A DNA stretch of 64,000 nucleotides from an uncultured Pseudomonadota bacterium (GTDB taxonomy: Bacteria; Babelota; Babeliae; Babelales; RVW-14): contig CAYMBP010000001.1 of the NCBI GenBank assembly GCA_964388745.1, forward strand, positions 28,244 through 92,243, written 5' to 3'. Positions 17,847 through 24,824 of this stretch are shown piece after piece. Within the stretch, counting starts at the first letter, position 1. The number at the start of each line of letters is the position of its first letter. Both the position numbers and the translations under genes were made by a program. Under the pieces are notes generated by a model. It saw only the letters and a list, made by a program, of their open reading frames with translations. It was not told where the DNA came from and searched no databases.

Positions 17847-20066
17847 TTAGATGAGCGCGTTAGCGACTTCTTGGCCCTTATCAGAAACAACAGAATGTTC
17901 TTCAAAGCCTAATTCAATAATCTGATCAATAAACTCCATGGGACGAAGTCCTATTTCTGCAGCTTGATGGAAAATACAGGTAGCCGGCGTAAGCCCTGGC
18001 AGGCTGTTACATTCAAGAATAACGACGCGAGGCTTATTGGTTGGGCTTTGTTCTGCATTTTGATAAAAGCAATCAATGCGAGCATAGCCCTTGCAGCCAA
18101 GGGCTTGATAAGCATTGCCTATAGTTTCTTGAACAAGTTTTTGTGCATCAGCAGGAATGAGTGCTGGTGTTTGATTTTCTCCCTGCCCTGGCAAGAATTT
18201 TTCTTCTATGCTTAAGATATTATTTTGTGTAATAACTTGTGATGGTGGAAGAACCGTTGTTTCATTATTACCTAAAACACCGCAGGTGAGCTCTGTTCCT
18301 ATAATATACTCTTCAATAAGAGCTTCAGATTGTCCTTCATTAAATAATTGATGAATCGCTTTTATCATATCGTCAATAGATTTTACCATATTGACCATTA
18401 CACTGCAGCCATCATCATGAGGCTTGACAATCAGTGGAGTGTGAAGTTTCTTTGTAATTGTTTGACAGAGTGTTGATTGCTCTTCTTCGGTTAATGTTGT
18501 CCAATTTGCTTTAGTTAAAAAGTAAGATTGAGGAACAGAGAAGCCATTTTCTTGTAAGAAGGTGTTTGTGCGATATTTATCAATAGTTAGGCTGCTTGTA
18601 AGAACTCCTGATCCGTTATATGGAATGTTAAGCATTTCAAGGGTTCCTTGGACTGAACCATTTTCACCTATGCCACCATGAAGACCAATAAAAATAAAAT
18701 CAAAATCTTTAGCAAGAGAGTTCCACGTAATAGCTTCATTGCCATCAAGAGACTGCTGTATTTCTCTTGTTGAGTTTTGAAGTAATTGCCGCGTTGAAAG
18801 AGCATGAAGTTTCATCTGATCATCAACAAAAAGCGGGGTAACTTCATATTTGTGGGGTGAGAGTTTGTAACAGACATTGCGGCCTGATTCGAGTGATATT
18901 TCACGCTCATTAGTATTTCCGCCAAGAAGAACTCCAATCCGTTTTTTATCATTTTTTTGATTGTTTGCATTGAGGATTGCTTCTTGCATGAGAGAGCCTT
19001 TGTAATTAGAAAATTCTTGGATAATCAATTTGTTGATTAGTTGCGTATGATTAAGACCAACTTCTGCAGCTTGGTGAAACAGAAATGTTGCAGGAGCTGT
19101 GCCAGGGAGGGTATTCAGATCAAGAATAATAATATTGCCATCTTCCTGCAAAAAGCCATCTATACGGACAATTGTTGAAAAATTACAGAGCTTTGCTACT
19201 CTGGCACATAATGCTTGAATTCGTTGAGTATCTTCTTGTGTGCAGCGGGCTGGTGTAATTTTATGTGCTCGACCTGGCATATATTTTTGTTCATAGTCAT
19301 AAATTTCGCAACCATTTTCTGGCACGACTTCAGTGATGGGAAATGCAGACCAATCTTGCTTAGCATTCTGAATAAGAATGCAGACAAACTCCATACCCGT
19401 AATTTTTTCTTGAAGTAGGACGTCTTGTTCGTGTCGGTGATCAATGGTTCGAGCATTATCAATGGATTTTTTAAGTTCTTTAGGTGAGTAAGCAACATTA
19501 ATACCAAGGCTTGACCCTTCACATGAAGGCTTGACAATAAGAGGGAATGCAATATTTTGTTCATCAAGTTGCATTTGTATATTTTTGAGATCAATTGTTT
19601 TGCTATCATGTGATTTTATAATGACACTGCGGGGAGCTGGAATCTTATGACGTTTAAAAAAGTTTTGCTGGAGAGCTTTGTCCATTGAAAAAGCGCTTGC
19701 TAATACTTTGCTTCCTATGTATGGGATGGCAAGTACTTCCATTAATCCTTGGATACAGCCGTCTTCGCCATATCGTCCATGAAGAGAGATATACATAAAA
19801 TCAATACGACTGGGAAGGTCATCCCATATTATTTTTTCAGCTTCATCGGCAAGTCGATGAATAAAGTCTGTTGTTTTTCCTCGGTGTAAAAAGTGCCAGG
19901 GAAGTTGATAGAGGGTGCCATCTGTTGTCTGGAAAAGGGGGATAACGGTAAAAAGATTGGTATCAAGATGATCGCAAATAGTGCGACCCGAATTAAATGA
20001 GACTTCGCATTCTATTGAGCGACCGCCCATTAAAACACCAATAACAAGTTGTGATGTCTGTACCAT
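17847..20066 (-). CDS. ddl: tandem-duplicated D-alanine--D-alanine ligase (Ddl-Ddl fusion)
   Basis: 739 aa, about twice a normal Ddl. Two collinear modules are visible. 'VIGVLMGGRSIECEVSFNSGRTICDHL' matches 'RIGVLLGGNTNEREISLESGRNVCYKL'. 'SLHGRYGEDGCIQGLMEVLAIPYIGS' matches 'GLHGGIGENGSVQGTLEMLNIPYNGS'. 'LDLNTLPGTAPATFLFHQAAEVGL' matches 'LECNSLPGLTPATCIFHQAAEIGL'. Confidence 0.85.
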   Translation of the reverse strand: MVQTSQLVIGVLMGGRSIECEVSFNSGRTICDHLDTNLFTVIPLFQTTDGTLYQLPWHFLHRGKTTDFIHRLADEAEKIIWDDLPSRIDFMYISLHGRYGEDGCIQGLMEVLAIPYIGSKVLASAFSMDKALQQNFFKRHKIPAPRSVIIKSHDSKTIDLKNIQMQLDEQNIAFPLIVKPSCEGSSLGINVAYSPKELKKSIDNARTIDHRHEQDVLLQEKITGMEFVCILIQNAKQDWSAFPITEVVPENGCEIYDYEQKYMPGRAHKITPARCTQEDTQRIQALCARVAKLCNFSTIVRIDGFLQEDGNIIILDLNTLPGTAPATFLFHQAAEVGLNHTQLINKLIIQEFSNYKGSLMQEAILNANNQKNDKKRIGVLLGGNTNEREISLESGRNVCYKLSPHKYEVTPLFVDDQMKLHALSTRQLLQNSTREIQQSLDGNEAITWNSLAKDFDFIFIGLHGGIGENGSVQGTLEMLNIPYNGSGVLTSSLTIDKYRTNTFLQENGFSVPQSYFLTKANWTTLTEEEQSTLCQTITKKLHTPLIVKPHDDGCSVMVNMVKSIDDMIKAIHQLFNEGQSEALIEEYIIGTELTCGVLGNNETTVLPPSQVITQNNILSIEEKFLPGQGENQTPALIPADAQKLVQETIGNAYQALGCKGYARIDCFYQNAEQSPTNKPRVVILECNSLPGLTPATCIFHQAAEIGLRPMEFIDQIIELGFEEHSVVSDKGQEVANALI

Positions 20067-20086
20067 GTGTTAAGCCTTTCAGGTGA

Positions 20087-21854: not shown

Positions 21855-22655
21855 CTACTGTTTATCTTTTTTATTAATAATTTTAAGATTCCCAACTGTT
21901 TGGAGGTTGTCTTTTTGAGTTGATTTATCGTGCTGATCAATTCCTTTTTTTTCAAAAATTATGTCTCCATTGCTTACCCAGGCAAGAAGGTTTTTCAGTA
22001 GATTATGGATGTGCGGGGTGAGAGAGGGATCTTCATCATTAATAATTTCTTCACTTATTGCTGCAAGATTTTTGACATAGTTAAGACAAATAAGTCTTTC
22101 GCGTTCATCTTGAGACTGTGCAGAAATAGTAAAGTGTCCACTTTGTTTGTTGTTATATCGTTTATATTCATTAACACTCTGAGTGTTTAGTGTTGATTGA
22201 GTGATGTTTTGTACCATTTCCCCGGTTATTTCAATAATTTTAACATATCGTGAATCAAGAGTTTTTTGAGGTGCTTCCGCTTCAGAGCTTTCAGCTGCAA
22301 GTTCTATGCCTGTTTCAATAAGGTTAAGAATTGCTGCTTGTGTTGCAATTTTATCATGATTACTTTTGGCATGAAGGAGTGAGCTAACGTGAATAAATGC
22401 CTTTGCAACAGCATTAAGTATTTTTTTTGCAGAAAGCTTGCCTCTTGTTATAGGGGGAAAAGAGTTATTGTTCTTACAAGGACATGCTGAACAACAATTG
22501 CAGCTGCTGCCACAGGCACACTCAGCGGTTGTGTTATTGCAGCAAGATGGAATACTTGTTGATTCAAAATTTTGTTTTTTGGGGGGGTGAGGAGATGATG
22601 CAAGAGGTGTTGTGGTGAGTGCTATCATTACAAGGCTAACTATCAATTTATTCAT
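21855..22655 (-). CDS. secreted protein with a metallothionein-like cysteine cluster
   Basis: RBS aaaaaGGAGtcttctctATG. Signal-like 'MNKLIVSLVMIALTTTPLASS'. 'SCCNNTTAECACGSSCNCCSACPC' has 9 Cys within 23 residues (nt 22476-22544). The rest looks helical and is unrecognised. Confidence 0.55.
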   Translation of the reverse strand: MNKLIVSLVMIALTTTPLASSPHPPKKQNFESTSIPSCCNNTTAECACGSSCNCCSACPCKNNNSFPPITRGKLSAKKILNAVAKAFIHVSSLLHAKSNHDKIATQAAILNLIETGIELAAESSEAEAPQKTLDSRYVKIIEITGEMVQNITQSTLNTQSVNEYKRYNNKQSGHFTISAQSQDERERLICLNYVKNLAAISEEIINDEDPSLTPHIHNLLKNLLAWVSNGDIIFEKKGIDQHDKSTQKDNLQTVGNLKIINKKDKQ

Positions 22656-23829: not shown

Positions 23830-24756
23830 TTAGTTAATTTGAAGGTGACTATTAATAATGCTTAATCGAGCGCCACTCGTCATAATAAGGTCAGCATTGC
23901 TATCGAAAGAGAGAATTCCTCCATCAAAGTTAAATAATTGTGATTGACCTTCAATAAATAGTCGACCATTGCCTTCTATACGATTTGTTTCAAGAATGGC
24001 ATTATTTAAAAAAAGGTCTGATTGATTAGCTCTAACATCAACGTAATCACATTTTACTTGAGCGCTTGGTTCAATTGTGCAAGAAGATTCTATGGTAATG
24101 CGTAAACGATCAGTTATATCAAAAAGCCCACCAATACCTTTGAGAATAACGTCACCAAGAACATCAATTCTATCAAGAGAGAATGTGCTAGATGTTATGT
24201 TAAGTTTTCCATCTCTCATATTAATAGTTTTAAGGCCACCAGCATTAAATAAAATATTCTGTGCACTTATGATCTCAAGGCTAACAAGTGAGAGATTGTT
24301 ATTATCAAGCAAAACAATGTTGCCAGTACCTCCAAGTTTAAATCTTCCTGTTCCTCCACCATGTAATGATGGAGCACCATTAAAGAAAAGGGTTCCTCTG
24401 TTGCTTATATTTAAATTTCCGTGAATATAAATTGTATGATTATTTGTTACAAAAAAACAGCTTCCTGTAATAGAAGCTTCTTCACCAAGGTGTAGATCTT
24501 GTTCTAATATGATTGTTCCATTGTTGAGTGTAAGGGGGCCATCAACTAGTTGATTAATGCCTAAAAAAATTGTTACACCTGGGGTGATATCAAATCCTTG
24601 ATTGAATTTAACAAATCCTCGGGCCCATTCAAAAGCAGTAAGGCTTGGTGTTGTGTCAACAACAATGGAGCTTCCATCTTTGCCATTAAAGATGCTTTGA
24701 AGTTTATGAAAAGAAAAGAGTGCTATAAAAAATATAAATATTACTTGTTTCTTCAT
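23830..24756 (-). CDS. secreted beta-helix-like repeat protein (Pmp-like FxxN / GG[AIL] motifs)
   Basis: Frame is open to 24795, but ATG 24756 follows AGGA and starts 'MKKQVIFIFFIALFSFHKLQS'. Repetitive G/N/L/I-rich strands: 'LFFNGAPSLHGGGTG', 'ILFNAGGLKTIN', 'QLFNFDGGILSF'. No C-terminal barrel. Ends 18 nt before the methyltransferase start. Confidence 0.5.
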   Translation of the reverse strand: MKKQVIFIFFIALFSFHKLQSIFNGKDGSSIVVDTTPSLTAFEWARGFVKFNQGFDITPGVTIFLGINQLVDGPLTLNNGTIILEQDLHLGEEASITGSCFFVTNNHTIYIHGNLNISNRGTLFFNGAPSLHGGGTGRFKLGGTGNIVLLDNNNLSLVSLEIISAQNILFNAGGLKTINMRDGKLNITSSTFSLDRIDVLGDVILKGIGGLFDITDRLRITIESSCTIEPSAQVKCDYVDVRANQSDLFLNNAILETNRIEGNGRLFIEGQSQLFNFDGGILSFDSNADLIMTSGARLSIINSHLQIN

Positions 24757-24824
24757 TACATCCTTTTTATAGGTGATTCGTTGGGCAGACACCATACAAA
24801 ACTGGTATCAAATATAGCAAATAG

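Follow-up and report, generated by a model that had tools for sequence, protein, structure and literature searches.

A tandem D-alanine–D-alanine ligase with two unlike active sites from an uncultured bacterium

A gene on the reverse strand of a 64,000-nucleotide stretch of DNA from an uncultured bacterium (GenBank assembly GCA_964388745.1, contig CAYMBP010000001.1, positions 28,244 to 92,243; hereafter the window, whose own numbering is used unless a related locus is named) encodes a 739-residue protein made of two complete Ddl (D-alanine–D-alanine ligase) modules. The gene is a genuine fusion and belongs to a two-module Ddl family that is old and widespread among bacteria. Throughout this family the N-terminal (N-type) and C-terminal (C-type) modules differ from each other at the same few active-site positions. 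We favor the view, to which we assign a probability of about 0.55, that the cell-wall Ddl of this organism would be a single-chain pair drawn from two Ddl subfamilies, in which each site is active and the acceptor pocket of the second is altered.

Two complete Ddl modules in one chain

The open reading frame (ORF) starts with ATG, has no internal stop and ends with a stop codon at 17847-17849. Its product contains the Pfam domains Dala_Dala_lig_N and Dala_Dala_lig_C twice each (E 8e-49 and 2e-76), with scores of 165.6 and 256.5 bits that both exceed the gathering scores (34.6 and 24, respectively), and residues ~5-352 and ~374-725 each match the NCBIfam Ddl models end to end. The whole protein scores 455 bits with TIGR01205 and 465 bits with NF002378, above the whole-protein cut-offs of 245.65 and 243 bits; scored singly with the same two models, the halves fall just under these values (240.2 and 230.5 bits for the N-half, 219.9 and 238.0 bits for the C-half). 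When the halves are aligned with one another, 349 residues can be paired at 32% identity (E 2e-58), a similarity far beyond chance. An initial annotation, made from the sequence without database searches, had proposed two complete Ddl modules in one polypeptide; the single open frame, the duplicated Pfam and NCBIfam domains and the identity between the halves bear this out. The boundaries proposed at that stage (nt 18945-20066 and 17850-18944) agree with those drawn from the amino acid sequence (Table 1) to within the linker of ~20 aa.

The same annotation had pointed out that a frameshift or a misassembly could make two neighboring ddl paralogues look like a fusion, in which case a stop codon was to be expected at about 18944-18990. 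The junction is open in the window. An identical protein (P0001) is present in NCBI on a 137-kb contig, and the family holds more than 120 full-length members. The best 120 homologues, to which all counts for close relatives refer, are 717-906 aa long and 52-61% identical to the query over 96-100% of its length; those that are named come mostly from Candidatus Dependentiae, TM6 or Babeliales. The linker, ~20-35 aa in the homologues and variable in both length and sequence, is open in all 30 of those printed across the junction. Finally, in 77 of 80 loci from species genomes, at least 96% of the two-module match lies within a single open frame. What could be said in favor of an artefact is that in one related locus (L082) each module has a gene of its own, with stop and start codons that overlap in GTGA, and that the tandem gene is interrupted in L019, L021 and L075. 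Set against the open junction, the identical NCBI protein and the independent full-length relatives, these cases leave an artefact with a negligible probability, and we consider this explanation refuted. The three breaks (that in L019 lies at 5983-8248) could themselves stem from frameshifts in long reads, the end of a contig or decay to pseudogenes.

An AlphaFold model of the protein, built from a 63-sequence alignment, has a pLDDT (per-residue confidence) of 89.2 and a predicted TM-score (pTM) of 0.85, with low confidence solely at the termini and in the linker. Parallel secondary-structure elements are found in the two halves, both of which model as Ddl ATP-grasp folds; a half devoid of this fold, the other finding that could have undone the initial proposal, was not seen. 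Foldseek matches in the PDB are exclusively single-module Ddl chains, at a probability of 1.00 and with TM-scores of 0.78-0.92 to the target and at most 0.41 to the query. The best-matching folds include 2dln, 1iow and 4c5a (TM-score up to 0.92), and no solved tandem Ddl is among the PDB matches. Since the pTM of 0.85 applies to the two-module chain, it argues for a defined arrangement of the N- and C-modules. The two probably pack against one another within the chain much as the subunits of a Ddl homodimer do.

Two unlike active sites in an old family

Both modules were mapped on E. coli DdlB, whose numbering is used below. Residues E15, H63, K97, K144, E187, K215, R255, D257 and N272 are kept in both modules, in 119-120 of the 120 close relatives; neither module has lost any of the positions examined for ATP, Mg2+ or the first substrate. 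In the set concerned with ATP, Mg2+ and catalysis (K97, K144, E187, K215, R255, D257, E270, N272), the sole change is a conservative E270D in the N-module. This module keeps the canonical E15/S150/Y216 triad as E19, S185 and Y262; it has D316 at position 270 and F328 in place of L282 (Phe in 120/120). The resulting Ser/Tyr/Asp/Phe set recurs in 119 of the 120 close relatives, and most of the distant two-module proteins have it too. The C-module retains E15 (E387), E270 (E685) and all ATP- and Mg2+-binding residues, but its triad is otherwise different, C554 standing for S150 and F624 for Y216. It also has L618 for Y210, D552 for E148, C697 for L282 and a D211S change. Cys150, Phe216, Leu210 and Asp148 are each present in 120/120 close relatives and Cys282 in 113/120. 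The glycine of the GSSxG loop (DdlB G153) is replaced by Met, Phe or Leu in most of them.

In known Ddl enzymes, the choice between Tyr and Phe at position 216 decides between dipeptide and depsipeptide synthesis (PMC5996685, PMC3378904). The residue acts within a Y216-E15-S150 triad, and the evidence comes from the E. coli Y216F, Leuconostoc F261Y and L. reuteri F258Y substitutions (PMC5996685, PMC3378904). By this published rule, the N-site would be classified as a dipeptide ligase and the C-site as Phe-type. The expectation of the initial annotation that the halves had diverged is thus upheld, with catalytic positions that differ between modules family-wide, and the alignment with DdlB that it called for shows catalytic residues kept in both halves and positions 150, 216, 210 and 282 altered in the C-module. 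Its specific observation, an LDLN motif in the first module where the second has LECN, is real and family-wide (D316 versus E685, both at the position of DdlB E270); however, the known specificity determinants are changed in module 2 instead. A purely structural half, which it had also considered, appears unlikely because in each half the residues for ATP, Mg2+ and catalysis show no variation.

The distribution of the family was assessed in two ways. When each GTDB species was represented by one genome, 80 loci (L002-L081) came out of the scan; L002-L021 among them are Dependentiae-like, with 47-56% identity. Identity drops to just 25-30% in L022-L081, yet both modules are covered. The hosts of the latter include Peregrinibacteria and other members of the Candidate Phyla Radiation (CPR), Saccharibacteria, Parachlamydiaceae and other Chlamydiae, Alpha- and Gammaproteobacteria, Bdellovibrionota, Holophagae, Clostridia and three cultured Dactylosporangium genomes. 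Taxon labels of metagenome-assembled genomes may be partly wrong, and it is the cultured genomes that anchor this breadth. An exhaustive homologue search among 1.84 billion representatives resolved three tiers: Dependentiae proteins of 700-754 aa (tier i), Bacteroidota proteins of 839-1285 aa with 37-42% identity (tier ii), and proteins of 780-830 aa with 30-35% identity (tier iii). Tier ii includes the cultured genera Thermonema, Flammeovirga and Hymenobacter, whose proteins bear the plain database label D-alanine--D-alanine ligase; the UniParc-only protein P0190, which has an N-terminal extension, was also assigned to the Bacteroidota by the homologue search. No eukaryotic names occur in the clusters of long or N-extended tandem-Ddl representatives. 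The taxonomic survey suggested at the outset therefore extends the fusion to Dependentiae, Bacteroidota, CPR, Chlamydiae, Proteobacteria, Actinobacteria and other phyla. A Ddl-Ddl fusion it is, as first proposed, but its architecture stands out less than was suggested, given that two-module Ddls are widespread in bacteria and known in plants. In two loci the tandem gene has additional company: a second tandem-like ORF (12190-14379) lies 4 kb downstream of it in L027, and a Ddl_C-like ORF (9480-10517) adjoins it in L047.

The N- and C-module signatures also hold in tiers ii and iii. All 365 columns of an alignment of 70 proteins, chosen to balance the three tiers, were scanned without bias for positions that are at least 85% invariant for each module type in every tier, yet unlike between the types. 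Only three columns emerged, corresponding to DdlB 150, 216 and 270, with Ser/Tyr/Asp in the N-module and Cys/Phe/Glu in the C-module. Positions 150 and 216 belong to the E15-S150-Y216 hydrogen-bond triad, and position 270 is a Mg2+ ligand.

Across tiers, N-modules are 29-37% identical to N-modules and C-modules 35-40% to C-modules, as against 26-29% between N and C. In a neighbor-joining tree of modules (100 bootstraps), all C-modules and stand-alone C-type proteins form one clade, with canonical Ddls on the N side, and tiers ii and iii each have their own N and C clades (84-97% bootstrap). Together, the cross-tier identities and the tree suggest that the split between N-type and C-type modules is older than the spread of the family. 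The fusion may have arisen once, or several times from an N-C gene pair. In L082 (2919-5164), an N-type gene 49% identical to the window N-module and a C-type gene 47% identical to the window C-module lie next to each other beside priA; because the tree nests both inside tier i, it is probable that a fused gene was split secondarily. Besides natural fission, a 1-nt frameshift in the assembly of this locus could account for the separate genes.

Both types also occur singly. A family of stand-alone 357-aa C-type proteins (P0191) in Syntrophales/Syntrophobacterales carries the full C-type signature (C150, L210, S211, F216, G219, G221, N223, T281, V282) in 120 of 120 members; this Syntrophales subfamily appears to be uncharacterized. 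The single stand-alone C-type gene whose context was inspected (L084, 8001-9077) lies outside the division and cell wall (dcw) cluster. Stand-alone N-type ddl genes (D270/F282) occupy the psd-rpe-ddl position in L087, L085 and L086, with no C-type gene within ±4 kb. As both types exist as stand-alone genes, N and C need not be paired, and either could function by itself. The syntenic N-type genes and the stand-alone C-type families also weaken the case for an obligate heterodimer.

Role of the second site and genomic context

Several lines of evidence place the tandem gene in peptidoglycan synthesis. In tier iii, an alanine racemase gene lies near the tandem ddl in 25 of 60 loci; 16 of the 30 racemase ORFs are downstream on the same strand, and the median gap over all 30 is ~16 bp. 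The ftsA gene is nearby in several tier iii loci. P0246, a 1262-aa protein from a Logan contig, is a Ddl-Ddl'-MurF triple fusion whose C-terminal 460 aa match TIGR01143 (murF) with 323 bits against a cut-off of 288.6. Since MurF uses the Ddl product, this fusion provides a Rosetta-stone link to peptidoglycan precursor synthesis. The PASTA domain, normally a part of penicillin-binding proteins (PBPs) and Ser/Thr kinases that binds muropeptides or beta-lactams outside the cytoplasm, is found at the C-terminus of tandem Ddls in three Bacteroidota proteins of 994-1285 aa (P0132, P0162 and P0211). In P0215 (987 aa, ENA), a GNAT acetyltransferase domain precedes the tandem Ddl. The window contains no second Ddl within its 64 kb; we infer that this Ddl is the only one in the genome and that both of its sites are active.

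In the scheme that we favor, the gene would specify the peptidoglycan D-alanine-D-alanine ligase of the organism, which most likely lives inside host cells and belongs to the Dependentiae/TM6 (Babeliales). Its N-type module, essentially a canonical Tyr-type Ddl, would supply D-Ala-D-Ala to MurF. The C-type module would be a second catalytically competent ATP-grasp ligase, binding ATP, Mg2+ and the first D-Ala in the usual manner. In its acceptor subsite, the Ser-OH/Tyr-OH hydrogen-bond network would be gone, replaced by Cys and Phe, and the omega loop would be remodeled in an invariant fashion. Loss of this network together with the remodeled loop leads one to expect an altered handling of the second substrate. 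The C-site might thus differ in its choice of, or affinity for, that substrate, making either a D-Ala-D-X product (for example, a depsipeptide) or D-Ala-D-Ala with other kinetics; a different specificity is at this stage a prediction from residue patterns only. Intramolecular packing would fix the two modules at a 1:1 ratio. We commit ourselves to no more than an active second site with an altered acceptor subsite because the C-module is unrelated to the ligases of lactic acid bacteria or to VanA, its Ser150 is replaced, and vanH, ldhD and vanX are missing from the surroundings examined.

One could envision another arrangement, which we think unlikely, in which the protein is a redundant pseudo-dimer: both modules would make D-Ala-D-Ala alike, the fusion would steady the dimer or fix its dosage, and the differences between sites would leave the product unaffected. 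All catalytic residues are indeed kept in both modules, the context points solely to D-Ala metabolism (alr, MurF), and the plant tandem DDL has been described simply as a D-Ala-D-Ala ligase, with moss precursors that end in D-Ala-D-Ala. Drift, however, would not hold C150/F216/L210 in one module and S150/Y216/D270 in the other across phyla as separate as Dependentiae, Bacteroidota, CPR, Chlamydiae and Actinobacteria. Nor does redundancy sit well with the persistence of the C-type signature in stand-alone genes, or with discriminating columns that coincide exactly with the specificity triad and a Mg2+ ligand. The C-module might instead be a dedicated D-Ala-D-Lac, D-Ala-D-Ser or D-Ala-D-X ligase, so that the cell would build two stem-peptide termini. 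Phe at position 216 is a documented depsipeptide switch (DdlB Y216F, L. mesenteroides F261, L. reuteri F258), the second triad member S150 is replaced as well, and L282 and Y210 of the acceptor pocket are changed. Such a dual-product enzyme is nonetheless doubtful: the annotated window ORFs and the recurrent neighbors include no ldhD, vanH or vanX/ddpX-like gene, the C-module is not close to known D-Lac or D-Ser ligases and misses the Van-type NCBIfam cut-offs widely, and the Tyr/Phe rule comes from proteins in which Ser150 is retained, which makes its transfer to a Cys/Phe site uncertain. We find it very improbable that the C-module is regulatory, binding nucleotide or product without turnover and serving the N-module allosterically or as a scaffold. 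The disrupted second-substrate triad and the Met, Phe or Leu at G153 in most close relatives would suit this role, but K215, R255, D257, E270, N272, E15, K97, K144 and E187, which pseudoenzymes usually lose, are invariant, and nothing would account for a pure regulator encoded by itself, whereas Ddl-annotated stand-alone C-type proteins form a large family.

Some observations weigh against a pair of active, differently tuned sites. Moss precursors were reported to contain the ordinary D-Ala-D-Ala pentapeptide (PMC9434261). The Leuconostoc ligase 1ehi is the weakest PDB Ddl match of the C-module (80.7 bits), and the D_ala_D_lac model (NF000206; VanA/B/D-type) scores each half at 139-140 bits, where 550 is the cut-off. 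No candidate for a D-lactate dehydrogenase, VanH or VanX-like gene turned up among the annotated ORFs of the window (150 aa or longer), or for an ldhD/vanH/vanX-like gene among the recurrent neighbors of the 80 related loci, which argues against a classical depsipeptide pathway. The single C-type clade has just 56% bootstrap support, and N-type and C-type genes exist on their own. Finally, the status of sole Ddl is read from 64 kb of the genome and the pseudo-dimer packing from the pTM of 0.85.

It is tempting to speculate that the proteins discussed here form an ancient, undescribed class of hetero-functional Ddl, spanning Dependentiae, CPR, Chlamydiae, Bacteroidota and Actinobacteria, which permanently couples a canonical Tyr-type site to a Cys/Phe-type site that has another product or a distinct physiological regime and which was the bacterial source of plant DDL. 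This broader proposal is tentative. If true, it would explain why plants have retained both halves, and why DDL is present even where MurF was lost. Ddl is a classic antibiotic target, inhibited by D-cycloserine, and it sets the peptidoglycan terminus that vancomycin recognizes. A two-site Ddl with a fixed non-canonical second triad is used by a large and broad set of bacteria, including many host-dependent lineages with small genomes; if the second site differs in product or kinetics, views of their cell-wall chemistry and predictions of their susceptibility to vancomycin or D-cycloserine would need revising. If both sites are equivalent, one is left with an ordinary housekeeping enzyme of unusual but known architecture.

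The features of the gene are collected in Table 1. The order psd-rpe-ddl recurs in the related locus L087, and no convincing terminator was found between the window psd, rpe and ddl genes; ddl is probably co-transcribed with the other two. Other products of the window are GlmU, a class B PBP, LpxC, LptD and BamD, as well as ankyrin and RING-like proteins and an Hc2-like histone, a gene content that fits a diderm intracellular bacterium of the Dependentiae phylum.

Table 1. Coordinates of the tandem ddl gene, its parts and related features
Feature	Position	Strand	Basis
Two-module Ddl gene, complete, 739 aa	17847..20066	(-)	ORF list, Pfam and NCBIfam domains
N-type Ddl module, aa 1-352	19011..20066	(-)	Residue mapping to E. 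coli DdlB
Linker of ~20 aa, aa 353-372	18951..19010	(-)	Alignment across junction; pLDDT 59-73
C-type Ddl module, aa 373-739	17850..18950	(-)	Residue mapping to E. coli DdlB
Codon of C554 (DdlB S150 position), C-module	18405..18407	(-)	Cys in 120/120 close relatives
Codon of F624 (DdlB Y216 position), C-module omega loop	18195..18197	(-)	Phe in 120/120
Codon of D316 (DdlB E270 Mg2+-ligand position), N-module (LDLN)	19119..19121	(-)	Asp in 119/120
Spacer from rpe stop to ddl start, 20 bp, Shine-Dalgarno-like GAAAGG	20067..20086	(-)	Sequence read
Single N-type ddl with psd-(rpe)-ddl synteny	L087 2590-5086; L085 3022-5158		

Other genes of the window deserve mention in their own right. The Hc2-like protein (9533-10066, reverse strand, 177 aa) matches the chlamydial histone H1-like Hc2 family (PF07382) with 61.5 bits against a cut-off of 40. 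Candidates for eukaryote-like effectors are a 499-aa ankyrin-repeat protein (1442-2941, forward strand) and a 416-aa protein with a long Ser/Thr-rich tract and a weak RING-finger match below the cut-off (15481-16731, reverse strand). A DabA homologue (744 bits) and a NuoL/Mrp-like DabB (25349-28935, reverse strand) point to inorganic-carbon uptake, which is unexpected in a host-dependent bacterium. An 837-aa protein with a C-terminal bacterial EndoU nuclease toxin domain (30284-32797, reverse strand) is probably a polymorphic toxin. Near ddl, three reverse-strand ORFs of 266-321 aa (21855-22655, 16775-17701 and 23830-24795) have no Pfam match; in the 266-aa product of the first, there are a hydrophobic N-terminal segment and a stretch rich in Cys (CCNNTTAECACGSSCNCCSACPC).

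Comparison with known Ddl systems

Canonical homodimeric Ddls (DdlB, 2DLN/1IOV; DdlA-type, 7U56 and 3R5F) share with the window protein the three-domain ATP-grasp fold and the ATP, Mg2+ and catalytic residues. The window protein differs in the covalent link between its modules, in E270D and L282F in the N-module, and in S150C, Y216F, Y210L, D211S, E148D and L282C in the C-module. The feature that the C-module has in common with Phe-type ligases (Leuconostoc LmDdl2, 1EHI; Lactobacillus Ddl) is the Phe at position 216; its Cys in place of Ser150 sets it apart, and the shared Phe marks a feature, not a lineage. The D_ala_D_ser model (NF000207; VanC/E/G-type) gives 149-157 bits against a cut-off of 520, and the VanG model 168-185 bits against 495. 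Membership in the VanA, VanC or LmDdl2 groups was rejected, as the curated cut-offs are widely missed and it is to these enzymes that the PDB similarity is weakest.

In the chlamydial MurC-Ddl (NF011171), a Ddl is likewise fused to an enzyme of peptidoglycan precursor synthesis in an intracellular bacterium, but the partner is a Mur ligase. The window protein reaches 227 bits with this model (cut-off 1015), through the Ddl part only (profile positions 450-791), and contains no Mur-ligase Pfam domain, which rules out membership. MurC-Ddl, cited as the precedent in the initial annotation, is indeed a known fusion but not the sole one, a Ddl-Ddl fusion having been described in plants (PMC9954125).

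Closer counterparts are the two-module Ddls of Bacteroidota (~900 aa), such as those of Thermonema rossianum, T. lapsum, Flammeovirga pacifica and Hymenobacter sp., and the 780-830-aa form of CPR, Chlamydiae, Proteobacteria and Dactylosporangium. Known from database annotations, these proteins share the N-then-C order and the module signatures and are 30-42% identical to the window protein across the two modules. The Bacteroidota forms have a ~60-aa insertion in the N-module and those of the third tier have inserts in the C-module; MurF, PASTA or GNAT domains are appended in some. The window protein, at 739 aa, is more compact and free of the insertions of the Bacteroidota forms. No mention of bacterial tandem Ddls, of a Dependentiae Ddl or of module asymmetry was found in the searchable literature.

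The tandem architecture as such is not new. Plant DDL is a fusion of two putative DDL enzymes (PMC9954125) and is recorded as a functional D-Ala-D-Ala ligase (PMC7432710). The Arabidopsis, moss and rice proteins (At3g08840, PpDDL BAE45860 and BAF22630) comprise two complete Ddl units per chain, as does the window protein, and the moss enzyme is recorded as a D-Ala-D-Ala ligase that plastid peptidoglycan requires. Arabidopsis ddl T-DNA insertion lines are without phenotype, for which the C-terminal half alone may be responsible (PMC9954125). Plant DDL differs in being eukaryotic, nuclear-encoded, longer and provided with a targeting sequence. Its origin has been attributed to Chlamydiae or to bacteria of the Cytophaga-Flavobacterium-Bacteroides (CFB) group (PMC3493653), and Dowson et al. 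found its identity to be closest to the Fibrobacteres-Chlorobi-Bacteroidetes (FCB) group (PMC9434261). Because these reported donors are groups that have tandem Ddls, plant DDL, likened here by its published description only, very probably belongs to the bacterial two-module family. The window gene adds a bacterial member to this known architecture; the interest lies in the conserved difference between its two active sites, of which we found no mention in the papers searched, and bacterial tandem Ddls offer a tractable model for plant DDL.

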